A model generated the notes under the pieces. That model saw only the letters and a program-made list of their open reading frames with translations, was not told where the DNA came from and did not search any database. From NCBI GenBank assembly GCA_033344795.1, contig JAWPMS010000001.1:1158992-1222991 (forward strand): a stretch of 64,000 bases of DNA, in the 5' to 3' direction. Positions 3,026 to 53,503 of this stretch are shown piece after piece (within the stretch, counting starts at the first letter, position 1; every line of letters starts with the position of its first letter). Source of the stretch: Acidimicrobiia bacterium. Lineage in GTDB: Bacteria; Actinomycetota; Acidimicrobiia; Acidimicrobiales; SHLQ01. Both the position numbers and the translations under genes were made by a program.

Positions 3026-3073
3026 ACGCAGAAGGTGGAAAGTGAGGCGCGACCCCGTCGTTCCTGGAGCGAA

Positions 3074-3115
3074 GCGTAAGGAAAAGGCGGTAAGTGAGGA
3101 GCCGCCTTGGGCGGC
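3074..3115 (-). terminator. Intrinsic terminator downstream of tRNA-Ile
   Basis: Minus-strand RNA: GCCGCC-CAA-GGCGGC, then AAGGCGG-(11 nt)-CCGCCUU followed by UUCCUU; stem arms at 3084..3090 and 3102..3108. Confidence 0.5.
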
Positions 3116-3126
3116 GACGAACGACG

Positions 3127-3200
<74 letters not shown>

Positions 3201-8939: not shown

Positions 8940-9259
8940 GAGAGATGCACCTGAATCTCGGTGATCTCATCGCTCTCGAGCCTGCTCGAAATGCGTCGAA
9001 GAAGCTCCTCGCTCATCCACTTCATTTCGCTCGCCCAGGCGGGATCGTCGACCTCCAAATGCAGGACGCCGTTGCTGATCTTTTGTGGCGTGGTGTGCGC
9101 CCCGATCACCTCTCCTGCGAGCGTCGACCACTCGGAGAAGACGGTTTCGACGACATCGACGGTGGGTGCATCGAGGTGTTTCATCACTCGATCGATCCCC
9201 TTGCCCATCGGCTGCGGTCCATCGCGAAATCGTCGATACGGGTTGTTATGCCACGACAT
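8933..9259 (-). CDS. DUF721 (DciA-like) protein of the recF-gyrB interval
   Basis: Track ORF 8933..9418 trimmed to the ATG at 9259 that overlaps the recF stop; VLHLEVDDPAWASEMKWMSEELLRRI is typical of DUF721. Confidence 0.75.
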   Translation of the reverse strand: MSWHNNPYRRFRDGPQPMGKGIDRVMKHLDAPTVDVVETVFSEWSTLAGEVIGAHTTPQKISNGVLHLEVDDPAWASEMKWMSEELLRRISSRLESDEITEIQVHLSR

Positions 9260-10364
9260 TTGGCACCTCGGCATCGAACGTTGCCTCTCCGAGGCGAATG
9301 GTGGCATCGGCAACCGCACCCGGCGGGAGATCAACCGCCGACGTGAGCAACGTCTGACCGGAAGGAAGCGCCGCCACGAGCGCCGCCGAACGATCGTCGT
9401 CGAGTTCCGAGAAAACATCGTCGAGGACGAGCAACGGTGCGACCCCTGTCGTCACTCGAACCAACTCGTGGCCAGCCAGTCGCAGAGCAAGTGCCAGAGA
9501 CCGTTGCTCACCCTGTGAGGCGTGGGTGCGCGCAGGCATTCCGTTGAGCAATATCTCGAGCTCGTCGCGGTGCGGGCCGACGGTGGTCACGCCGCGCCGA
9601 ACATCGTCCTTACGCGCCTGGGTCAACGCCTCCGCGAGGCCGGCGTCAAACCAGGGAGCCGCATATCGGATCGTCACTTCACTAGATCCTCCTGCCACCG
9701 CCTGCAGGGCGTCGGTGACGAGCGGCGAGAGGCGTTCGAGGGCGGCCGCTCGAAGCGCTCCGAGTTCGTCACCAACACTTGCGAGTTTCGTGTCCCAAAC
9801 ATCGAGCGTGAACGCCGCATCATCGTTGAGGCGCCCATGCACCCCTTTCAACAGCGCATTCCGTTGCTTGAGCACCTTGTCGACCTGTGCCCTGGTCTGT
9901 TCATTTCGCGGGTGAAGTCCCACGACGACGTCGTCGATGTAGGTCCGTCGCTCGCCGGGTGAACCTTTGATCATCTCGAGGTCGTCAGGAGCAAATACGG
10001 TCACCGACATGACCCCGAGCAAGTCACGGTTTCGCTGCACGCGCTGCCGGTTCATCTGAATCCGAGCACGACCCGTTCGCGGAAGCTCAGCCTCAAGCAG
10101 CAACTCTCGCTCGTCGCTTCGCAGCGTCGCTCGGGCGATCGCTCGTTCAGCCCCCACCTTGATCAGCGCTTCTGTCGGAGCGCCCCGAAACGAGCGCATC
10201 GAGGTGAGCCACGCAATGGCCTCCACGATGTTCGTCTTGCCCGAACCGTTGGGACCGATGAGCGCCGTGACGCCTCGCGCAAACGACAAGTCGATCTGTT
10301 CATGGGAACGAAAATCGGTCAACCACAATCGTTCGAGCACAAGAGCGGAGGAGTGATCGGTCAC
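9246..10364 (-). CDS. recF: DNA replication and repair protein RecF
   Basis: LWLTDFRSHE start region, Walker A GPNGSGKTNIVEAI, signature ASQGEQRSLALALRLA, Walker B LLVLDDVFSELD; start uncertain (GTG 10364 or 10340; track start 10451). Confidence 0.9.
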   Translation of the reverse strand: MTDHSSALVLERLWLTDFRSHEQIDLSFARGVTALIGPNGSGKTNIVEAIAWLTSMRSFRGAPTEALIKVGAERAIARATLRSDERELLLEAELPRTGRARIQMNRQRVQRNRDLLGVMSVTVFAPDDLEMIKGSPGERRTYIDDVVVGLHPRNEQTRAQVDKVLKQRNALLKGVHGRLNDDAAFTLDVWDTKLASVGDELGALRAAALERLSPLVTDALQAVAGGSSEVTIRYAAPWFDAGLAEALTQARKDDVRRGVTTVGPHRDELEILLNGMPARTHASQGEQRSLALALRLAGHELVRVTTGVAPLLVLDDVFSELDDDRSAALVAALPSGQTLLTSAVDLPPGAVADATIRLGEATFDAEVPNVVA

Positions 10365-10485
10365 CGCTTCACCGTATCTGCTCGACACTTTTGTATTGTC
10401 GGGACTTCCGCCCGACACCGATCGAAGCAGATCCCCGCAGAACGCCGTCACTCACGTCGGGCGAATACGGGCCGATTGCAAACCC

Positions 10486-11574
10486 ATGGATCGTCATGTG
10501 CGCTGGTTTCGTCGCGAGATCGCGCTGAAGGTCGCTCAACGGCTCGGAATCGAGGCGGGCGTCGTCTGCGCGCTCGTGGTCGGGGCTCTCGTGGTCGCTG
10601 AAATCAATACGCCGATCGTGATACTCACCGGCGCCTCGACGATTCCCACCTTCATCGTCATCCGACTCGCGCTCTCCTGCGCACTCAACCCGACGTCGAG
10701 TTCGTACCTGGTGCGTTGGCCGCGTCCATCGGGCTCGCTGTCACCCGCGGAGCCCACCAACGTTGGCTCCGCGACCGATATCGCCCTGCAGGCAGCAGGA
10801 TTCTTGCCGCGAGGTGCCTTCAGTGAATGGGGTGGAGCCACGACGAACTTGTATGACGACGCCTCATGCACACTGGTACTGACCTGTCACGAAGACGACG
10901 TGGTCGTCCTCACCGGCCTCACCGACGGTCGACTCTGTGTCACCACCACCTACGTCATCCCGCCGCACGAGCGGCTGATCGTGAATCAGGAACGAGCCTC
11001 CGACGTTGGTTCAGTTCTCGCCAGCCACGCAACCTTGCTCGATGCCATCATCGGTCAGCCCACCATTGGCGCGGTCGAGACGAACGCACAGTTCATCGTC
11101 GACCTGCTCGTGCTCGAATGGGACATCTGGGATCAGCTGGGCCCGGTATTCGGTCCATTCGTCGCCGTCGGCAACCGTCCACAGCCAAGCCTTCTGCGGG
11201 TGCGAGTGGCCGCGCAAGATGTTCTGTCACGTGCACTCGCCGCGGCGCCACCGTCGGTCTCGGTGACCTACGAGCTGGAGCGTGCTGCGAGCGACACAGT
11301 CGTCGAGCAGCCATCTGAGGATGGACTGGCCCAGGAGATCATGAGCATCCTCGAACCGCCAACGCCCCTGCCGCCTGTAGCTCCCGCGACCCCTGTCGCG
11401 CCCACGGCACCTGTTGCTCCAGTGCCACCGCGTCGAGGGTTGTCCGTGCTCGCCGAGCAAGCGCGACTCGCCGATGAGCGAACCGAGCGAGCCCTCGCGG
11501 CCGGTGATGCGCAGGCGGCGAACAGGCGCCTCTTCGACGATGTTTCGGAATCTCCCATGGCGAAGGCCAGCTGA
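10486..11574 (+). CDS. Hypothetical membrane protein with Pro/Ala-rich segment
   Basis: Track ORF 10396..11574 trimmed to the ATG at 10486; N-terminal TM segments, PTPLPPVAPATPVAPTAPVAPVPP tract; stop overlaps the next start (TGATG). Confidence 0.5.
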   Translation: MDRHVRWFRREIALKVAQRLGIEAGVVCALVVGALVVAEINTPIVILTGASTIPTFIVIRLALSCALNPTSSSYLVRWPRPSGSLSPAEPTNVGSATDIALQAAGFLPRGAFSEWGGATTNLYDDASCTLVLTCHEDDVVVLTGLTDGRLCVTTTYVIPPHERLIVNQERASDVGSVLASHATLLDAIIGQPTIGAVETNAQFIVDLLVLEWDIWDQLGPVFGPFVAVGNRPQPSLLRVRVAAQDVLSRALAAAPPSVSVTYELERAASDTVVEQPSEDGLAQEIMSILEPPTPLPPVAPATPVAPTAPVAPVPPRRGLSVLAEQARLADERTERALAAGDAQAANRRLFDDVSESPMAKAS

Positions 11575-12461
11575 TGTTCGCCGTCCTTCTCGCCGCCTTG
11601 TCGGGTCTCTCGTACGGAGCATCGGACTTCTCGGGAGCACTCGCCACCAAGAAGAACGACGCCGCGCTCGTCACACTCGTGGTCCAGGTCATCTCGTTCG
11701 CCGCGCTCGCCGTCGTCCTTGTTCTGACCTTCGACGGAACGGTCTTGCCGAGCGATCTCGCCTGGGGCGCCCTCGGTGGCGTCGGCGCAATGGTCGGGCT
11801 CACGACCTTCTATCGAGCCCTCGCGGACGGTCCGATGTCGACGGCTGCATCGGTCACCGCACTCATCGGTGCCCTCTTGCCTGTGACCGCCGGTCTGTTG
11901 CTCGGCGAGATCCCCAATAGACCAACCCTGGTCGGCATTGCACTTGCGATTCCATCTGCGATCATCGTGTCCGTCGGCGGGCTCGAAGCGCACAAGTTGT
12001 CCCGAATGCTCAACCCTCGAGCGCGGGCCGCTGCCCGCGCACAGATTGCGGCCACCCGGCGCCTCAGCGTCGTTGCCGGCCTGGGGTTTGGTGTGTTCTT
12101 CACGGCGCTCGCACAAACATCGGCCGATTCGGGTCTCTTCCCGCTCGTCGGAGCTCGAGGAGCCTCGGTTGCCATCCTCGCCGTTCTGTTGACGATGCGC
12201 CGCTCGTGGAGCCGCATCGAACGATCCGACTACCCATCGATCGGCATCGCTGGCGTACTCGACTGCTCGGCGAACAGCTTCTATTTGCTCGCGCTGGCCG
12301 ACGGAAGCGTCACCTGGGTGGCAGCCGTCGTGTCGCTCTACCCCGTGGCCACGGTGCTCCTCGCAAGACTCCTTCTCAAAGAAGAACTCTCGCGGGTGCA
12401 GATCGCCGGTCTGATCATGGCGAGCTCAGCGCTTGTCTTCGTCGGACTCGGAGCATCCTGA
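11574..12461 (+). CDS. EamA/DMT family transporter
   Basis: 295 aa, 10 hydrophobic segments; LSGLSYGASDFSGALATK start typical of actinobacterial EamA proteins. Confidence 0.75.
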   Translation: MFAVLLAALSGLSYGASDFSGALATKKNDAALVTLVVQVISFAALAVVLVLTFDGTVLPSDLAWGALGGVGAMVGLTTFYRALADGPMSTAASVTALIGALLPVTAGLLLGEIPNRPTLVGIALAIPSAIIVSVGGLEAHKLSRMLNPRARAAARAQIAATRRLSVVAGLGFGVFFTALAQTSADSGLFPLVGARGASVAILAVLLTMRRSWSRIERSDYPSIGIAGVLDCSANSFYLLALADGSVTWVAAVVSLYPVATVLLARLLLKEELSRVQIAGLIMASSALVFVGLGAS

Positions 12462-12527
12462 GCAACTCCGTTTGGGGGTTTTCCCCGACCAAACTGCCGC
12501 CAATACGGCGGCGTAGGGAAGATATCT

Positions 12528-12549
12528 GGGCAATTTGATCTAATTGCCC
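12528..12549. promoter_or_regulatory. Perfect 8-bp inverted repeat GGGCAATT-N6-AATTGCCC upstream of the GGDEF-EAL gene
   Basis: Seen directly; ends 35 nt before the ATG at 12584; a GCCGCC-AATAC-GGCGGC hairpin lies at 12496..12512. Confidence 0.3.
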
Positions 12550-12583
12550 GCGGAACCTTAGGGATCACCAACCCGCCTCCGAT

Positions 12584-15500
12584 ATGTCCTACATGAAGTA
12601 CGCGTGGGAATCAGGCCGTATGGCGATGGCATGGAAAATTTGGTTCGGAGTCGCGATCACGCTGACGACGATCTATTTCGTCGTGGAGAAGTCCGCCACA
12701 TCGAAGCTGGTGTTGTACAACGGCGTGGGACTCATGTCGATCGTGATGCTGCTCATCGGCGTCAAGGTCAACAAGCCCGACATGCTGAAGCCATGGCTGT
12801 GGTTCGCCGGCGGTCTGACCTCGTTCCTGACCGCCGACGTCATCTACTACCTCATCGAGCTTCGCTCGGGTGAGGCGGGACCACCATTCCCCAACTGGGC
12901 CGATGCGTTCTACCTGGGTATGTACCCGCTGATGATCCTTGGCCTGATCAAGCTGGTCCGAGCGGTAGCACCAGGTCGCAGTCGGGCAAGCCTCATCGAC
13001 GGCGCCATCGTGGGCGTCGCAATGTTCGGCCTCATGTGGGTGTTGTTCGTCGACGAAGTCGTCACGTTCGAGCAGACCACCGCAGCTCTTGTCGTGTCGC
13101 TCGCCTACCCAGTGATGGATGTCATCCTTCTCGCTGTGGCAGCTCGCCTCCTGGTGACCGTGCACCTCACACACCCACCCTTCGCATTCATCGCCATCGC
13201 GATCGGCTCGTTGGCAATCGCCGACACGGGCTATCAGATCTACCTGACGAACGGAACCTTCCGGACAGGCCTTTGGGTCGATGCGTTCTGGCTGACGTTC
13301 TATGTGGGCTTCGGTGCCGCTGCTCTCCATCCGGCGCTGGGACGGACAACGCCCCAACAGCAGAATCAGGATCGTCTGACACCAATTCAGCTGGCGATCA
13401 TGTTCATCGCAACGCTGAGCGTGCCGTTGGTCGACCTCTTCTGGGGCAACGCAGAAGACCGCACGGTCACGATCGCTGCGTCGGCGTTCCTCTTCCTACT
13501 GATCTTGATTCGCATCTTCGACCTCATGAAGACGGTCGAGCAGGGTCGAGACCGACTGCGCCACGACGCCGAGCACGATTCTCTCACCGGCCTCGCCAAC
13601 CGGGTTCGGTTCGCTGAACGCACCAAGGCATCGTTGGCCAAGGCCGATCAGAAGCACCCCGTCGCGGTGCTGTTCATCGACCTCGATGACTTCAAGACCG
13701 TCAACGACAGCCTCGGTCATCAAGCTGGCGACGAACTCCTCGCCGTCGTGGCGAAGCGTCTCGAGACCGTCGTTCGAGATGGCGACACGGTTGCCCGCTT
13801 CGGTGGCGACGAATTCGCGGTGCTTCTCGAATCAGCGGTGGATCGACGCGATGCAATGAACGTTGCTCGCCGCGCCCTGGATTCGCTCGGTGAACCGATC
13901 GAGATCGGCGATCGCGCGGTGCGTGCTCTCGCCAGTATCGGCATCGCGATGGACATCGAAGGCAGCAGCGACGTCGACACGATGATGCGCAACGCAGACG
14001 TCGCCATGTATCTGTCGAAGTCTCGTGGCAAGGGTCGCTACGAATTCTTCGAAGAAGCAATGCACGAGGAAGCCGTCGAACGCCTCGACCTGAAGGCCGA
14101 TCTTCAGCGAGCCATCGACGACGAAGAATTCCTGCTCCACTATCAGCCGATCTTCAATCTCGAGAGCGGCAAGGTCGACCTCGTCGAGGCGCTCATCCGC
14201 TGGAAGCACCCGGAACGTGGACTCGTCGACCCCGACCGGTTCATCTCTCTTGCCGAGGAGAACGGACTCATCGTTCCGATCGGCAACTGGGTGATCCGCG
14301 AGGCCTGCCGTCAAGCGGCTGCCTGGCACAAGATCCCCGGCTGCGAAGAGATCGACATCTCGATCAACCTGTCGATGCGCCAGCTGCAGGACGATCAGCT
14401 CATCAACACGCTGACGAACGCCATTGCGGCCACCGGCGTGAACGCAAGCAACCTGGTGCTTGAAATCACCGAGTCGATGCTGGCCATCGACGCCGAACAG
14501 AGTGTGGGCATTCTCGGCCAGCTCAAGACCATCGGCGTGAAACTCGCGATCGATGATTTCGGAACGGGCTACTCGTCGCTCAGCTACCTGAAGGCCTTCC
14601 CGGTTGACGCGATCAAGATCGACCGTTCGTTCATCAACGAGCTTCATCGCTCATCGACGTCATCTGCGCTCGTGGAAGCCGTCGTCAACCTGTCGACCGC
14701 ACTCGGCGCGTACACGGTTGCCGAGGGCATCGAGTACTCCGACCAGGCCGACATCCTTCGACGTCTCGGCTGCGACCGCGGACAAGGCTTCTACTACTGC
14801 CGTCCGCTGCCAGGTCCTGCGCTGACGACTCTCTTCCGTGAACACCTCGACGATGAACTCGAGCCACTCGAGGCTTGGCGTCAGTCGGCAGAGAAGATTC
14901 AAGATCGCAGCTACGACACCGAAGTCCGCTTCGGCATGAACGAGATCCGAACGGTTTCCAAGGACATCGATGACCTGATCTCAGACCTCAAGATGCCCGT
15001 CATGTCGAGCTTCTCATGGCTGCAACACTGGTCGGAAGCGTTCACCAACTGGACCCCGATGATGGTCGAGGTACGCACGCCGCAGACGCAGCAGCTCGCA
15101 GCGTGCGCCATGCTCGCCATCGACAAACGTGCGGAAGGGGCCACCGTTGTTGCGATGGGCCACAGCAGCTCGCTCTATGCCGGTCTGCCAGCACGCGACC
15201 CTGCCTCGGCGAAGGCATTGGCCAAGGCGATCGTCGCTGCTTTGAACGACGTGGCCGAGGTTTGGTCGCTCGATCTCGAACAGCTCCCGGATCACGATCC
15301 AACGCTTGGCTTTTTGAACGAGGAACTCGACAACGGTCAGTTGCTCCCCGAGCTCCGTGTCCCTCGCGTCGTGTTCTCGACCGCCCACAACGCCGACGAG
15401 GTGCTGAGCAAGAGCAAGCGCAAGCAACTCCGCAGGGCACGAGCGAAGATCGAGAACGACGGACTCGAGATGGTCATCGCATTCGACCGTGGTCGTGCCA

Positions 15501-15982
15501 TCAGCGCTGAGCTGCTCGACGAGGTCGAGGCCGTGCACGTCTCTCGAGATCGTCACGCTCGCCGTAACAGTGACCTCGACCGACCTGCCGAGCGCGAGTT
15601 CTGGCGCCGCGTGGTCGAAGGTGGCCACGAGGAATGGGAGATCGAGATCGCGACGCTGCGTCTCGACGGCAACCTCGCCGCCTACGCAGTAGCGATCCTC
15701 GATGAGGACGTCTATCGCATCTACGACGGCCGCATGAGCACCGACTGGCAGCACTACTCGCCAGGTCGACTCGTCGAGGCTGCTGCGCTGCAACGTGCAC
15801 TCGCTGATCAGCGGTTCCAGGTACTCGACTGGATGTCGGGAATCGCCGCCGAGAAGCTGCTCACCACGAACTTCGCCGAGAGCCGTGCTCGTCTCGTCGC
15901 CACATCGGGCAGCCGTTCGATGAAGCCACGCCTGACGAAGACGGCGCTCAGCGAGGACAGCCAAGAAGCTGCAGCTGCCTGA
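12584..15982 (+). CDS. Membrane-bound GGDEF (diguanylate cyclase) - EAL (phosphodiesterase) protein with C-terminal CelD/BioF2-like GNAT domain
   Basis: 1132 aa; about 9 N-terminal TM helices; intact GGDEF (ARFGGDEFAV), EAL motifs (LVEALIRW, DDFGTGYSSL, KIDRSF, EGIE); last ~370 aa resemble Acetyltransf_6/CelD. Confidence 0.85.
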   Translation: MSYMKYAWESGRMAMAWKIWFGVAITLTTIYFVVEKSATSKLVLYNGVGLMSIVMLLIGVKVNKPDMLKPWLWFAGGLTSFLTADVIYYLIELRSGEAGPPFPNWADAFYLGMYPLMILGLIKLVRAVAPGRSRASLIDGAIVGVAMFGLMWVLFVDEVVTFEQTTAALVVSLAYPVMDVILLAVAARLLVTVHLTHPPFAFIAIAIGSLAIADTGYQIYLTNGTFRTGLWVDAFWLTFYVGFGAAALHPALGRTTPQQQNQDRLTPIQLAIMFIATLSVPLVDLFWGNAEDRTVTIAASAFLFLLILIRIFDLMKTVEQGRDRLRHDAEHDSLTGLANRVRFAERTKASLAKADQKHPVAVLFIDLDDFKTVNDSLGHQAGDELLAVVAKRLETVVRDGDTVARFGGDEFAVLLESAVDRRDAMNVARRALDSLGEPIEIGDRAVRALASIGIAMDIEGSSDVDTMMRNADVAMYLSKSRGKGRYEFFEEAMHEEAVERLDLKADLQRAIDDEEFLLHYQPIFNLESGKVDLVEALIRWKHPERGLVDPDRFISLAEENGLIVPIGNWVIREACRQAAAWHKIPGCEEIDISINLSMRQLQDDQLINTLTNAIAATGVNASNLVLEITESMLAIDAEQSVGILGQLKTIGVKLAIDDFGTGYSSLSYLKAFPVDAIKIDRSFINELHRSSTSSALVEAVVNLSTALGAYTVAEGIEYSDQADILRRLGCDRGQGFYYCRPLPGPALTTLFREHLDDELEPLEAWRQSAEKIQDRSYDTEVRFGMNEIRTVSKDIDDLISDLKMPVMSSFSWLQHWSEAFTNWTPMMVEVRTPQTQQLAACAMLAIDKRAEGATVVAMGHSSSLYAGLPARDPASAKALAKAIVAALNDVAEVWSLDLEQLPDHDPTLGFLNEELDNGQLLPELRVPRVVFSTAHNADEVLSKSKRKQLRRARAKIENDGLEMVIAFDRGRAISAELLDEVEAVHVSRDRHARRNSDLDRPAEREFWRRVVEGGHEEWEIEIATLRLDGNLAAYAVAILDEDVYRIYDGRMSTDWQHYSPGRLVEAAALQRALADQRFQVLDWMSGIAAEKLLTTNFAESRARLVATSGSRSMKPRLTKTALSEDSQEAAAA

Positions 15983-16039
15983 CCCGCAGTTGGTCTCCAA
16001 GTACTGGTCCCAAGTGGTTCCGGTGCTGTAGGTGCACAG

Positions 16040-16272
16040 CTTCGCCCTCCCCGTTGCGCATCGCTTCGCTCGCTTCACTAGAAGTCGGGCTGCGCTGCAC
16101 CCCTACATCTCCGACTCTCCTACGTTCCACCATTCGGCTTCCCACCGGGTCGACTGGGCAGCCTTCCGCTGAGTTGGGTTGCAGGTCGGCGGCAAGACTG
16201 GGGCCGTTCCGGGATGGGTGGTGCGGCGTAGTCCGACTTTCAGTGGAGCGAAGCGGAACGGGGAGGACGAAG
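16040..16272. repeat. Long imperfect palindrome (~233 bp hairpin-forming element) between convergent genes
   Basis: Left arm CTTCGCCCTCCCCGTT...GCTTCGCTC...AGAAGTCGGGCTGCGCTGCACC pairs with right arm GGTGCGGCGTAGTCCGACTTT...GAGCGAAGC...AACGGGGAGGACGAAG; shares motifs with 52977..53357. Confidence 0.65.
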
Positions 16273-16334
16273 ACGTGCCGCCCGGTCCGGACAGAGGCCT
16301 TGGTCTTGCCGCCGACCGGCTGAGGCGTCCGCAC

Positions 16335-18461
16335 TCAGCGGGTCTGTAGGACGAAGGGGAGTACCGGGCCCGAGCCGGCTTCTTGAAGCAGGTGCGCGGC
16401 GACCGTGATGGTCCAGCGACTGTCCGCGGTGTCGTCGATGAGCAGCACGGGTGTTGATCGAAGGGACTCATCGGGAAGCTCTGCGACGTCGACGTCGAGC
16501 AGGCCCCAGACGTTGGCGAGCTGAAAGGCGCTGTTCGACTGCTCGGCCTGCCATCCGGCGCTCTGGTTGCGGACCAGCCCGCGGTGAACCGGCAACTTGC
16601 CGAGCTTGCCCACTTCGGCGGCCAGGGTGTCGATGACGACCCCGTTGCGCCGCGATGGCATCGTGCAGATCCAGCCGGGTCGCTGTTCCCACTCCCAGCG
16701 CCGCAGGATGCCGACGATCCCATTCACGAGCTCGGGTGAAATCGTGGTGCTCGAGCCATCGAGCAACGACGCCACCTGGGGCCCCCAACCACCATCACCC
16801 AACCGGCTGAGCGCTCGACCCATGCGCGCTTGGCGAGCCGGCGCGATCTTGCCCTTCGGTTCATCGAGACCCGGCGCCCATTGCCGGCGCGGCTCAACGG
16901 CGATGTCGACTCCTCGAAGGTGATCTCGCGCATCTTGGGCACCAGAGCTGACCTCGGAACTCAAGCGCAGCGGCTTCCCGAGCCGAAGCAGGCATCGATC
17001 GCAGCGGTCACAGTCATCCGCCTCGGCGTCGTCGAGCAAGTCTCGGAGATACCGAAGGCGACAACCTTCGTGCGATGCGTATTGGCGCATCTGCTCGCTC
17101 TCGACCGAACGCAGCTCGCGGAGCCGATCGGCCAACTCGCCGTCGTAGGTCCATGCCTGTGATGAGCGCAACCAACCACCCTTCGCTCGCGTGACCGCGC
17201 CTTGCACATCGAGGATGCTCAGAAGCGTGTTGAGCCGCGTCCGCCCCATGTTGACCACCGCTTCGAGGCGTGGGATCGACATGGCGGACTTCGTGTCGAG
17301 TTCGGACAGGACCCGCGTGCACACCTCTTCGCTCGGCATCGAAACCGACTCGAACCATTTCCAGATGCGTTCGTCTTCGCGGGGTCGAGGCAGGGCGATG
17401 ACCTCGGCGTGTTCGATACCACGCCCCGCTCGGCCGATCTGCTGGTAGTAGGCAACAGGTGTCGGTGGAAGCCCGAGGTGGATACAGAACGCCATGTCAG
17501 ATTTGTCGAAGCCCATACCAAGAGCGCTCGTGGCCACCAGGGCCTTGAGCTCGTTGTTGCGCAGGCGGCACTCGAGACGCTCGCGATCTTCAGGCGTGGT
17601 CGAACCCGAGTAGGCCGCCACATCGTGGCCCCGCTGTCGCAGCCAATCAGCAGCAGTGATCGCCTGGTCGACGGTGAGGGCGTAGATGATGCCCGAACCT
17701 TCGATGTCTCCGAGGTTGTCGGCGACCCACGCAAGGCGCTCGGCGTCGTCGTCGAGTTCGATCACGCTGCAGTGCAGCGACGCACGGTCGAGGCTGGTGC
17801 GCAAGACCACGGTGTCGGAACCGAGTTGGGAGGCGACGTCGTCGGTGACTCGCTGATTCGCTGTCGCCGTCGTGGCAAGGATCGGGGCCCATTCGGGAAG
17901 CTCGGCGATGACCGTGCGCAGTCTCAGATAGTCGGGACGGAAGTCATGACCCCAGTCGGATATGCAATGTGCCTCGTCGCACACAAGTGCGAACGGTCGG
18001 GCCAACATCATCGAGAACACCCGCTTGCGAAAGCCGGGGTTTGCGAGGCGTTCGGGCGCGATGAGCAAAAGGTCGATCTCATCGGCGAGCAAGGCGTCTT
18101 CGATCTCGCCCCAATCATCGGTGTTTGCCGAGTTGATCGTCTCGGCTCGAAGGCCCAGCGTGGCCGCAGCGGCAACCTGGTCGCGCATCAGCGCCAACAG
18201 GGGTGAGATGACGATGCTCGGCCCCCACCCGCGATCGCGAAGCATCTTTGTACTCGAGAAGTAGACGGCCGACTTTCCGAACCCGGTGCGGGCGACGAGC
18301 AGCGTGCGTTTCCGATTGGCGACGACGGCTTGCACGGCTTCGAGTTGTTCTGGTCGCGGCACGGCATCGGGCCCTGCGAGCAAGCGCACGTGTGCGGTGA
18401 GCTCGGCCTCAACCTCCTCGGGGGTCGGGCGGAGGGGCTCGATGAGTGCAGCGGTCGCCAT
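16335..18461 (-). CDS. recQ: RecQ-family ATP-dependent DNA helicase with C-terminal ComF/phosphoribosyltransferase-like domain
   Basis: 708 aa; TGFGKS Walker A, VCDEAHCISDWGHDFRPDY, Cys cluster CDRCDRC; C-terminus VLLIDDTADSRWTITVAAHLLQEAG resembles the PRTase/ComFC loop. Confidence 0.88.
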   Translation of the reverse strand: MATAALIEPLRPTPEEVEAELTAHVRLLAGPDAVPRPEQLEAVQAVVANRKRTLLVARTGFGKSAVYFSSTKMLRDRGWGPSIVISPLLALMRDQVAAAATLGLRAETINSANTDDWGEIEDALLADEIDLLLIAPERLANPGFRKRVFSMMLARPFALVCDEAHCISDWGHDFRPDYLRLRTVIAELPEWAPILATTATANQRVTDDVASQLGSDTVVLRTSLDRASLHCSVIELDDDAERLAWVADNLGDIEGSGIIYALTVDQAITAADWLRQRGHDVAAYSGSTTPEDRERLECRLRNNELKALVATSALGMGFDKSDMAFCIHLGLPPTPVAYYQQIGRAGRGIEHAEVIALPRPREDERIWKWFESVSMPSEEVCTRVLSELDTKSAMSIPRLEAVVNMGRTRLNTLLSILDVQGAVTRAKGGWLRSSQAWTYDGELADRLRELRSVESEQMRQYASHEGCRLRYLRDLLDDAEADDCDRCDRCLLRLGKPLRLSSEVSSGAQDARDHLRGVDIAVEPRRQWAPGLDEPKGKIAPARQARMGRALSRLGDGGWGPQVASLLDGSSTTISPELVNGIVGILRRWEWEQRPGWICTMPSRRNGVVIDTLAAEVGKLGKLPVHRGLVRNQSAGWQAEQSNSAFQLANVWGLLDVDVAELPDESLRSTPVLLIDDTADSRWTITVAAHLLQEAGSGPVLPFVLQTR

Positions 18462-20930: not shown

Positions 20931-20980
20931 CGAAATTTGCAGGCTGCTGGGCCGGATTGGCCCAGCAGCCTGCAAAATTG
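20931..20980. repeat. Palindromic repeat element, copy 1 (18-bp perfect arms TTTGCAGGCTGCTGGGCC / GGCCCAGCAGCCTGCAAA)
   Basis: Arms at 20936..20953 and 20959..20976 with a 5-nt loop; about 80% identical by eye to the element at 22892..22941. Confidence 0.8.
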
Positions 20981-21600: not shown

Positions 21601-22901
21601 TGAACGGAACCGATCTTCTCGAACGACGCGCCGAGCGCGGTTCCGCGCGGGGAGCGGCAAACGTGTGGGCCAACGCGCAGCTATCACCTCACGATGGCCG
21701 AGGGCCAGAGCATCGATCGCGGTTGCTCTTTCGAATTGCACTCGTCGTGTGGATCGTCGGTCTCATCGCCGTCGCTCTCGATCAGGCCAATGACGATTCT
21801 CCAACCGACACCGTCGACCAACCCGACACGACCGAGCCAGTCTCGGCCGATGACGAAGCACTCCTACCAGAGCCCATTCTGATCGATGGCATGAAGCTCG
21901 ACGGCGCGTCGATCCCCTTCAGTTATTCCACCGCGGACTCCGAAGGTGCTGTCGAGGGCGCTGTTGAGGACTTCTTCGATGGACTGTTCGGATCGAACCG
22001 TGATCGGGCGGTCATCAACGATGCCGACGAACGGGGGACGTCGACCGTCATCTTCGCCGACCCTGAACGCCCCTTCGAAGAACCAATTCTCGGATTGTTG
22101 CTCTTCGGTTCCGGTGGGTTTCGGCCTTGGGGCGTCAACGTCGAGCCGGGTCAACTCGAGGAACTCTCCGCGCACGTCGCCCAGCAGGACGGCGACTGGA
22201 GGATCGACGAAGACAGCGGCCTCGTCGAAGTTGCTCGGTTCGATGACGACCCGTGGGACATGGTTCGCTATGGATGGCAGTTCGACTTCGTCGATGGTGA
22301 CGATCAAGCGACGTTGCAAGCGGAACGTCACGATGCGTTCGCCGAGTGGATCTGGCTCTCGCGTCTCGGATCCGGTGAGGTCGACAGCGGACGAAACCTC
22401 TCTGTGACGCCCACGACGGTGCTCGGCAACGACGCCCTGGTTCTGTCGATAGAAGGTACGGACAGGCGAGACCCCGACTTCGCGGACGCTCGTACGGAGC
22501 TGCTTTGGACGTCCGACGACTTCGCGTATCGGCTCGTCTCGTCGTCGGTGCGAGACAACACCGCGTTTGGACGGGCGCCCGATGAAGACGTCGACAACCT
22601 CACGCTCGTCGAGCGTCAGGTGTGGCTCGATTCCATCGACCGAGCGAACCGCACACCGATCATCGAATGGGTTGGCGGTCTGTTGAGCATCACCCTGATG
22701 CTTGCGCTGATCGTGAGCTCCGTGGTGTTGCTCTTTCGCAGGTCGTATCGCTCGTCTGCGATCGCATTCGCGACGGTGCTCGTCTGGATCGTCGTGCTTG
22801 GATCCTTCGGCTTCTCACAACTCCTCATCTTGACCGCCGGCCTGGGGCTCGCCTGGTGGTCATGGCGCACCCGAGCGCGTGGCCCAATTGGCGAAATTTG
22901 A
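21597..22901 (+). CDS. Sigma-coupled membrane protein (putative anti-sigma-like partner)
   Basis: 434 aa; ATGA overlap with the sigma stop; one N-proximal TM, a large acidic domain and 3 C-terminal TM segments; no ZAS motif. Confidence 0.6.
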   Translation: MMNGTDLLERRAERGSARGAANVWANAQLSPHDGRGPEHRSRLLFRIALVVWIVGLIAVALDQANDDSPTDTVDQPDTTEPVSADDEALLPEPILIDGMKLDGASIPFSYSTADSEGAVEGAVEDFFDGLFGSNRDRAVINDADERGTSTVIFADPERPFEEPILGLLLFGSGGFRPWGVNVEPGQLEELSAHVAQQDGDWRIDEDSGLVEVARFDDDPWDMVRYGWQFDFVDGDDQATLQAERHDAFAEWIWLSRLGSGEVDSGRNLSVTPTTVLGNDALVLSIEGTDRRDPDFADARTELLWTSDDFAYRLVSSSVRDNTAFGRAPDEDVDNLTLVERQVWLDSIDRANRTPIIEWVGGLLSITLMLALIVSSVVLLFRRSYRSSAIAFATVLVWIVVLGSFGFSQLLILTAGLGLAWWSWRTRARGPIGEI

Positions 22902-22941
22902 AGCCTGCTGGGCCAATCTGGCCCACCATCCTTCAAATTTG
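22892..22941. repeat. Palindromic repeat element, copy 2 (degenerate)
   Basis: CGAAATTTGAAGCCTGCTGGGCCAATCTGGCCCACCATCCTTCAAATTTG; the stop codons of both convergent genes (22899..22901 plus strand, 22933..22935 minus strand) lie in the AAATTTGA arms. Confidence 0.75.
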
Positions 22942-52554: not shown

Positions 52555-52610
52555 TCACGTATCATAATGACGTCCCGCCAGGGCGTGAAGAGCAACTCTG
52601 TCGCTCGTCG

Positions 52611-52835
52611 TCAACCAGACAGGAGCGTCGCAAGCGCCCATACGGTCATGATCAAGCCGATGCCGATGAACACCAACGTGCGAACGAGCGGTGGGCGCTC
52701 GAGGTCATTCTCGTCGAGATCGGGTGGCGGCTTCACAAGCGCAAAGCCGGGCCCGAGAACGAGTGCAGCGCCAAAGGCCAATGCCAGAAGAGGCAGGAAG
52801 TTGTCTCCAAGGAGCTCGACTTGGGCAAGCAGCAC
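52611..52835 (-). CDS. Small two-TM membrane protein
   Basis: 74 aa; GTG start with GAGAGGGA SD 4-5 nt upstream; two hydrophobic helices. Confidence 0.5.
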   Translation of the reverse strand: MLLAQVELLGDNFLPLLALAFGAALVLGPGFALVKPPPDLDENDLERPPLVRTLVFIGIGLIMTVWALATLLSG

Positions 52836-53111
52836 AATTCCCTCTCAAGATGTTCGAGATCGGTCCCGATGCTACTTGTGTCTGGTGATTCGCCCTCGCT
52901 GGACACGCAGTGGGATTCAGGGTGGGAGTCACGACTCCCTCCACGCATCACGCCAGAACTTCGGTCCTGGTCCGTGGCTTCCGCCCTCCCACGTTCCGAT
53001 CACACCTCGACACTTCCGGTCGAGATCCGGCGAAGCCGAGTTGGTCGCTCCGCGAGCTCCCGTGCGCGCTGGCAGCTCCTCGTGCGCATAGACACACATG
53101 TGACGACCGAC

Positions 53112-53157
53112 ACAAGGGGTCTGACCCCTTTTTAGAAAAAGGGGTCAGACCCCTTGT
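53112..53157. terminator. Perfect 22+22 bp palindrome forming two convergent terminator-like units (GGGGTCTGACCCC + T5 on each strand)
   Basis: ACAAGGGGTCTGACCCCTTTTT-AG-AAAAAGGGGTCAGACCCCTTGT seen directly; 350 nt downstream of the dnaB stop. Confidence 0.6.
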
Positions 53158-53377
53158 TAGCTCGTGGGCTAGTGCCTACGCGGCAGCGGAGCTGGACTCA
53201 GCTGAACGCGTGAGCCTGTATGCGCACAGTCACCCGCCAGCACCGGACTGAGGAGGGACGACGAACGGCTGGCGGCCTCAAGGAATCCGCAGGATTCCCG
53301 CAGTCCGCAGAGCACACCGAGCCGAAGGCGAATGTGCGATTGCCGGGAGCGAAGCGGGAAACAGGGACCAGCGACCA

Positions 53378-53457
53378 GGCACGGCCTCCGGCAGGGCTCT
53401 TGTAACGAGCTAGTTCGAAGCTGCGGAGCCGGTTCGAGCGGGCACGGCCTCCGGCAG
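53378..53457. repeat. 17-bp direct repeat GGCACGGCCTCCGGCAG x2 (63-bp period)
   Basis: Copies at 53378..53394 and 53441..53457, verified against the ORF-track frames. Confidence 0.85.
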
Positions 53458-53503
53458 TCCACCGAGCATCGAGGAGCCGACAGGCGACGGATTGCGACCG
53501 CGG

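Follow-up and report, generated by a model that had tools for sequence, protein, structure and literature searches.

The long imperfect palindrome between a GGDEF-EAL gene and a recQ-like gene in this stretch of DNA (64 kb, analysed over its whole length and hereafter called the window) is ordinary in kind: it is a new, apparently rare small interspersed palindromic repeat, doubled across a convergent gap. The palindrome consists of two inverted copies of a hairpin-forming repeat of about 70 nt, designated A (left arm) and B (right arm). Since the two genes converge and both copies are oriented in sense, the copies are inverted relative to each other and thus make up a long imperfect palindrome. 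A probability of about one half is given to the reading in which A and B form a doublet, the hairpin repeat being interspersed and of low copy number, with one copy in each of the two convergent 3' UTRs, where it would probably act as a 3'-end module.

The gap spans 352 nt (15983-16334), and two genes of the ORF list converge on it (Table 1). The product of the left gene was matched by the Pfam families GGDEF (2e-45), EAL (1e-74) and Acetyltransf_6 (2e-16). That of the right gene is 100% identical to NCBI MDW3176839.1 (MAG Acidimicrobiia bacterium), named 'helicase-related protein' at NCBI; DEAD and Helicase_C are its only Pfam domains, and its C-terminal ~350 residues gave no family match in Pfam, neither RQC nor HRDC being detected. 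The window has a GC content of 61%, the neighbouring genes are ordinary chromosomal ones (gyrA, gyrB, recF, EamA, MerR, pirin, HAD, ECF sigma factor), and a Pfam scan of 46 window ORFs detected no transposase, including those of the Y1 type. The distance from the palindrome to recF-gyrB-gyrA is about 6 kb. Relatives differ in the genes that they carry between recQ and recF-dciA-gyrB (window 9246-18461 compared with loci L008, L012 and L013): three + strand genes (a 392-aa ORF, EamA and GGDEF-EAL-GNAT) are located there in the window, in opposite orientation, while recF directly follows recQ in L008 and L012, and two other genes follow recQ in L013.

Table 1. Coordinates (window numbering) of the convergent genes and of the features recognised in the gap between them.
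Feature	Position	Strand	Remarks
GGDEF-EAL-GNAT gene	12584..15982	+	left convergent gene, 1132 aa; ORF list and Pfam
Native untranslated stretch 3' of the GGDEF-EAL gene	15983..16026	+	shared ...GGAGACCA...GGTTCCGGTGC segment
Repeat unit A, left arm	16027..16107 (core 16034-16101)	+	inverted repeat, profile match, unit alignment, fold
Spacer between units	16102..16180	.	not palindromic beyond chance (z 0.9 for 16102-16219)
Extended hairpin of ~140 nt, immediately 3' of recQ	16181..16320	-	outer stem 16181-16205/16296-16320 encloses unit B
Repeat unit B core, right arm	16220..16278	-	inverted repeat, profile match
RecQ-like helicase gene	16335..18461	-	right convergent gene, 708 aa; ORF list and Pfam

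The arms of the palindrome are the longest inverted repeats of the 64-kb window, and the individual pairings quoted in the first-pass annotation are all present there. Complementarity reaches 81% over 37 nt (16034-16070 with 16242-16278) and, after an offset due to an indel, 81% over 32 nt (16070-16101 with 16220-16251), and a perfect 10-nt inverted pair is included (CGCTTCGCTC / GAGCGAAGCG). When 16034-16101 was aligned with gaps to the reverse complement of 16220-16278, 51 of the 68 columns matched (z = 9.3), which was equalled by none of 1000 shuffles. The first-pass annotation had described a single palindrome of ~233 bp with symmetry continuing toward a centre near 16156; the two complementary arms of ~60-68 nt hold, but the 118-nt spacer between them is non-palindromic. 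Self-complementarity of this interior (16102-16219, with 16102-16156 aligned to the reverse complement of 16157-16219) has a z-score of only 0.9, and 218 of 1000 shuffles did as well. A second inverted repeat that had been missed, 16181-16205/16296-16320 (25 nt, 84%), flanks the right arm on both sides. In the comparison with shuffled controls that the first-pass annotation had proposed, 16030-16285 folds better on both strands, with -147.7 kcal/mol (z -7.55) on the + strand and -130.2 kcal/mol (z -5.72) on the - strand, and none of 200 shuffles folded as well. When the whole gap is folded, the structure of minimum free energy contains the long A:B pairing, with -186.2 for the + strand and -164.9 for the - strand, as against about -160 and about -141, respectively, if two separate hairpins were formed instead.

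Orthologous loci were obtained via RecQ homologues, and they show that the arms come and go independently of each other. Both arms are found in L003 (RecQ 99%), with 12 differences in 352 columns; L001 (91%) retains only the recQ-proximal arm and L002 (85%) only the GGDEF-proximal arm. Neither arm is present in the 154-nt gap of L004 (90%) or in the 57-nt gap of L009 (84%), where a small hairpin is nevertheless still found, as in relatives with a short gap; in L010 (82%) the recQ and GGDEF-EAL genes overlap and no arm is present, and in L008, L011, L012 and L013 (83-91%) a different gene follows recQ, without any unit. The 3' untranslated stretch next to the GGDEF-EAL gene is conserved in L001, L002 and L004, whether a repeat unit is present or not. 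The units found so far are restricted to a shallow clade of uncultured Acidimicrobiia, in which arms are gained or lost within short evolutionary times, as in REP/REPIN- or MITE-like elements; a conserved RNA gene does not turn over so fast within a shallow clade. Between the window and L003, 7 of the 12 differences fall within the outer-stem halves (16183-16186 and 16315-16319), including one compensatory pair (16315 T>C with 16186 A>G), and an eighth (16267) falls in arm B; arm A and the spacer (16013-16182) are identical.

Five copies of the unit were recognised in total. Unit A is C-rich on the + strand and forms an imperfect hairpin by itself (nhmmer match 16025-16126, E 2e-24), and in unit B the C-rich strand is the - strand, which has the sense of recQ (match 16287-16195 on the - strand, E 1e-18). 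Each has its own orthologue: copy D in L002 has flanks and position in common with A, and copy C in L001 has flanks and position in common with B, with a core 93% identical, so that the arms are separate entities. The fifth copy, E, was detected when metagenome contigs were scanned with a pattern, and is located on contig RCNE010000066.1 (locus L007), between a VWA-domain gene, whose stop it follows by 32 nt, and a co-directional alpha/beta-hydrolase gene downstream; its assembly, GCA_003704835.1, also carries the recQ locus L001/L006, on a different contig. A profile built from A-D alone, with E left out, recognises copy E at E 2e-15, and the unit therefore exists singly at an unrelated locus. 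Identity between the recQ-locus copies and the L007 copy is about 75% over about 69 nt. All five copies align across a core of ~70 nt with 64-93% identity (consensus roughly GCAC.GCTTCGYCCTCCCCGTTGCGCATCGCTTCGCTCGCTYCACTGAAAGTCGGRCT.CG..GCACC), and only orthologous copies have related heads and tails.

Position and composition are also shared. Unit A starts ~48 nt past the stop of the GGDEF-EAL gene and unit B ~52 nt past that of the recQ-like gene, and the five copies are all in sense with the nearest upstream gene, starting 32-65 nt past its stop, an orientation bias that covers three independent sites and is not significant. On the sense strand, C makes up about 42% of the unit and G 22%. 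Taken per 80 nt, the sense strands have 40-46% C and 19-21% G, and their C-minus-G excess (0.26-0.275) belongs to the top 0.1% of the window. In terms of composition only, these C-rich, G-poor and weakly structured strands are rut-like.

Every unit contains an imperfect stem of its own, pairing roughly GCAC.GC..GCCC with GGGC..GC.GCACC, and within this stem a pair covaries, being GTCC/GGAC in B and C and GCCC/GGGC in A, D and E. The units are in turn nested inside longer outer stems whose sequence differs by locus (window, L001, L007): the outer stem of L001 is found at the equivalent place with a different sequence, and L007 has another one again. The recQ-side hairpin of ~140 nt folds with -93.5 kcal/mol on the + strand and -67.6 kcal/mol on the - strand. 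In an alignment of three sequences only (window, L003, L001), 94.7% of its cells are paired and 7 pairs are changed on both sides, a pairing reached by none of 500 shuffles, with 0-2 in slid controls; this compensatory signal could equally be obtained from palindrome correction at the DNA level as from selection on structure. The A/D hairpin has 3 compensated pairs. At 4 of the 5 copies the better fold is that of the G-rich strand, which is antisense to the adjacent gene, and at D in L002 the two strands fold about equally, a pattern at odds with a simple model of a hairpin in the sense RNA; G-U pairs are also commoner on the G-rich strand at most copies (e.g. 10 vs 1 in the recQ-side hairpin), and the C-rich sense strand of single units folds no better than shuffles (z -2.7 to +1.8). 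In the outer stem of L007 (2825-2840, 2973-2985), a CTCCCTC stretch pairs with GAGGGAGG just upstream of the hydrolase gene, and the hairpin could mask the ribosome-binding site of this gene.

The MITE/REP-like option of the first-pass annotation had relied for dispersal on motifs recurring at 52977, 53346 and 3066, which turned out to be at chance level both by counts against shuffles and by the unit profile. The 12-mer GGAGCGAAGCGG occurs 3 times in the window with at most 1 mismatch (1.1 expected), a number reached by 9 of 100 shuffles; the 16-mer CTTCGYCCTCCCCGTT matches its own two arms and one site with 3 mismatches inside recQ, and nothing else in the window; and the GCGAAGC mini-hairpin motif is not enriched (28 vs 20.3 +/- 4.5). 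The unit profile had no match in the dnaB gap or in the tRNA-downstream region, even when the search space was set to 1 kb and matches at E <= 100 were accepted. Of the three options in the first-pass annotation, this one nevertheless comes closest to the evidence and stands in part: an arm of ~70 nt is repeated at an unrelated locus and the arms vary independently, but the repeated entity is not the 233-bp palindrome.

Wider searches added little. No additional copy was obtained when the gap was compared with the window by BLAST, and nhmmer (--max) with the unit profile against the window and 13 loci (180 kb) gave only the known ones. The window (64 kb) thus has two unit copies, both in one gap, and the MAG GCA_003704835.1 has the unit at two loci. 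A pattern scan of 185,579 representative genomes gave a single chance match, inside an Amycolatopsis ORF, and that of metagenomes gave two contigs of one MAG and nothing further; no unit copy was found in viral contigs, plasmids or phages. The concatenated six-frame translation of the units, meant to catch spurious ORFs lying over other copies, matched nothing at E <= 10 among 5.8 billion proteins. The scanned collections do not hold the source genome, since its own copies gave no match. Because these wider scans are nearly empty, copy number looks low, unlike that of classical REPs or MITEs, and the three independent loci, one of them a doublet, suggest a low copy number and a narrow distribution. 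By inspection, no direct repeat that could represent a target-site duplication flanks A, B, C, D or E, the outer flanks of the units being inverted and not direct, and no conserved terminal repeat was found beyond the unit's own stem.

By analogy, the element would work most like REP/BIME/REPIN sequences and terminator-like MITEs (SPRITE, ERIC, Correia), and judged from sequence the units are most likely to be placed as low-copy REP/REPIN- or MITE-like repeats. With the MITE-like families (SPRITE, Correia, ERIC) they have in common that they are small, non-coding, hairpin-forming, interspersed and intergenic, that their presence and absence is polymorphic and that a copy is located at an unrelated locus. 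They differ in that neither target-site duplications nor terminal inverted repeats of transposase type were identified, although the stem within the unit could take the role of terminal repeats, in that apparent copy number is much lower, and in that an outer stem specific to the locus surrounds each copy, an arrangement of which we know of no described case for SPRITE, Correia or ERIC. MITE-like repeats have been proposed or shown to be terminators, RNase III substrates and mRNA-stability elements (review PMC10969869). REP and REPIN sequences of Enterobacteria and Pseudomonas are likewise extragenic and imperfectly palindromic, occur as singlets alongside doublets at locations that vary among close strains, lie in 3' UTRs and between convergent genes, and form long hairpins from two inverted units and a spacer, as A and B do at a distance of 118 nt. 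The units described here differ from them by their length (about 70 nt instead of about 20-35 nt), their 3 known loci instead of tens to hundreds of copies per genome, and their host, an uncultured member of the Acidimicrobiia and not a proteobacterium. To our knowledge no RAYT is known for this lineage. According to a 2026 preprint, an E. coli REP is a partly Rho-dependent terminator as well as a stabiliser of the upstream mRNA, convergent gene pairs with REPs between them tend to have both genes more highly expressed, and REP positions differ among strains (bioRxiv 10.64898/2026.03.23.713779).

This likeness leads to a possible though doubtful history in which A, spacer and B were inserted together once in the ancestor of the clade, having been moved as single-stranded DNA by a RAYT or by an IS200/IS605-type tyrosine (HUH) transposase, and in which the single arms of L001, L002 and L007 are decaying remnants. 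Since A/D and B/C share flanks and position, the simplest history is indeed a two-armed ancestor followed by losses, and the architecture fits the published definition of a REPIN, namely two inverted imperfect palindromes with a spacer forming a hairpin, singlets being remnants (PMC3337134); the sole arm-core change between the 99% strains (16267) moreover brings B closer to A, as conversion would. Against it, doublets are known from a single locus, L007 has a lone unit beside which no remnant of a second arm is visible, no hairpin is formed by the spacer whereas REPIN spacers are reported to keep the hairpin (PMC3337134), low-copy units of ~70 nt contrast with units of about 20-25 nt in hundreds of copies, no conserved GTAG head exists in the units (one is found next to copy A only), and no Y1 transposase was found among the window ORFs. 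An unlikely alternative denies mobility altogether and takes the region as a purely local terminator or 3'-end hairpin grown by inverted duplication and palindrome correction, the likeness of L007 reflecting a shared functional motif, e.g. a protein-binding or termination signal. The location exactly between convergent genes, the small hairpin that persists in short-gap relatives, the locus-specific outer stems that change by compensation and the very low apparent copy number would all suit such an origin; yet the similarity to L007 extends far beyond what a short motif needs, and the two arms have separate orthologues in different relatives. A more far-reaching version of mobility is regarded as very unlikely: the unit would be a portable 3'-end or terminator module homing into the loops of pre-existing terminator hairpins, with RAYT/IS200-like mobility of single-stranded DNA hairpins, a REPIN-type system in Actinomycetota. 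Homing of this kind would account for the different locus-specific outer stem at every copy, and, if true, would involve a unit three times the usual size.

The element is not a 6S/Ms1-like RNA, an option that had also been raised in the first-pass annotation and that did not withstand the searches. With gathering scores, Rfam detected only tRNA in the whole window, and at E <= 10 only noise matches (mir-622, sR10) were obtained for 15950-16400 on both strands; no sigma-70-like promoter was found on either strand of the gap, and the element is absent or halved in relatives with 82-91% RecQ identity, which does not fit a conserved housekeeping RNA gene. Its likeness to 6S/Ms1 RNA is limited to a general long, largely double-stranded fold; it differs by having no covariance-model match, conservation in close relatives or promoter match, and the central bubble that mimics an open promoter was not identified. 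More generally, an independently transcribed double-stranded regulatory RNA (6S/Ms1-like or another sRNA), or an antisense RNA from the G-rich strand, is considered highly improbable. The very stable fold with strongly negative z-scores speaks for it, as does the better folding of the G-rich strands, which hold most G-U pairs, and, read from the sequence alone, Shine-Dalgarno sequences are possible pairing partners of the C-rich CCCUCCCC motif; on the other side, apart from the Rfam, promoter and conservation results, A and B would need transcription in opposite senses, and single-unit C-rich sense strands fold like shuffles. Least probable of all is an element acting at the DNA level, such as a cruciform, a hotspot of recombination, or a site bound by a protein, for instance gyrase or a nucleoid protein, as has been proposed for REP/BIME: the element is palindromic in DNA, the recQ-recF region is structurally variable among relatives, and palindrome correction in DNA could equally yield the compensatory changes, but a short recurring binding motif is not enriched in the window.

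Nor is the element a canonical intrinsic terminator. No hairpin followed by a T-run was found on either strand of 15700-16600, GC-rich hairpins being present; like bidirectional intrinsic terminators, the element is GC-rich, hairpin-forming, centred in a convergent gap and usable from both strands, but its length is 5-10 times the usual one, U/A tracts are missing from its flanks, and it is built from a repeat that is also present elsewhere. Bidirectional termination, the third option of the first-pass annotation, is nonetheless plausible as a function in view of the position between convergent genes. Other readings of the gap were discarded. A 128-aa ORF (15948-16334, - strand) has no Pfam match and contains a 1-nt indel at 16319 in L003; attC, retron and oriC were judged from sequence and context only, and were rejected on the basis of missing R''/R' core sites, no nearby reverse transcriptase or integrase, and flanks made of conserved chromosomal genes.

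Under the preferred reading of a low-copy repeat doublet acting at 3' ends, a transcript leaving either gene would first carry ~80 nt that are C-rich, G-poor and weakly structured, with the composition of a Rho-loading site, and would then form a large hairpin, which for the recQ transcript would be the extended hairpin of ~140 nt. Read-through RNA of either gene would fold into the A:B hairpin of ~245 nt. Such hairpins may halt or insulate convergent transcription and shield 3' ends from exonucleases, and the units would stand in for the short hairpin of relatives with the 57-nt gap. The repeat nature of the units, their presence/absence pattern, nesting, compensatory changes and composition are observed, and mobility as well as a termination or stabilisation activity are inferred. 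If this reading is right, a short hairpin repeat remodels the 3' ends of neighbouring genes and leaves coding sequence untouched, in an uncultured and poorly studied actinobacterial lineage without catalogued repeats of such kind. The case also calls for caution in the prediction of sRNAs and riboregulators, as a striking palindrome between convergent genes can be a mere pair of sense-oriented repeats. Its low apparent copy number restricts the reach of the repeat, and no long-standing question is opened by it.

Hairpins of other kinds were observed elsewhere in the window. The dnaB-downstream gap (52555-53503, 950 nt) contains a perfect 22-nt inverted repeat at 53112-53157 (ACAAGGGGTCTGACCCCTTTTT / AAAAAGGGGTCAGACCCCTTGT), which forms two facing canonical U-tract intrinsic terminators. 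The whole gap is unusually stable when folded (z about -6 to -7); it was considered as a relative of the repeat and rejected, having a branched structure around the canonical terminator pair and no profile match. Downstream of a tRNA (3127-3200, - strand), a terminator-like hairpin GGCGG...CCGCC followed by TTTTCC is located at 3066-3110 on the - strand, near which GGAGCGAAGCGT is a chance match to the repeat. Two similar GC-rich hairpins with A/T flanks, at 20933-20979 and 22894-22940 (AAATTTGCAGGCTGCTGGGCC... and AAATTTGAAGCCTGCTGGGCCA..., respectively), bracket the ECF sigma factor gene and the next ORF of 434 aa, and may represent a second family of small hairpin or terminator repeats.
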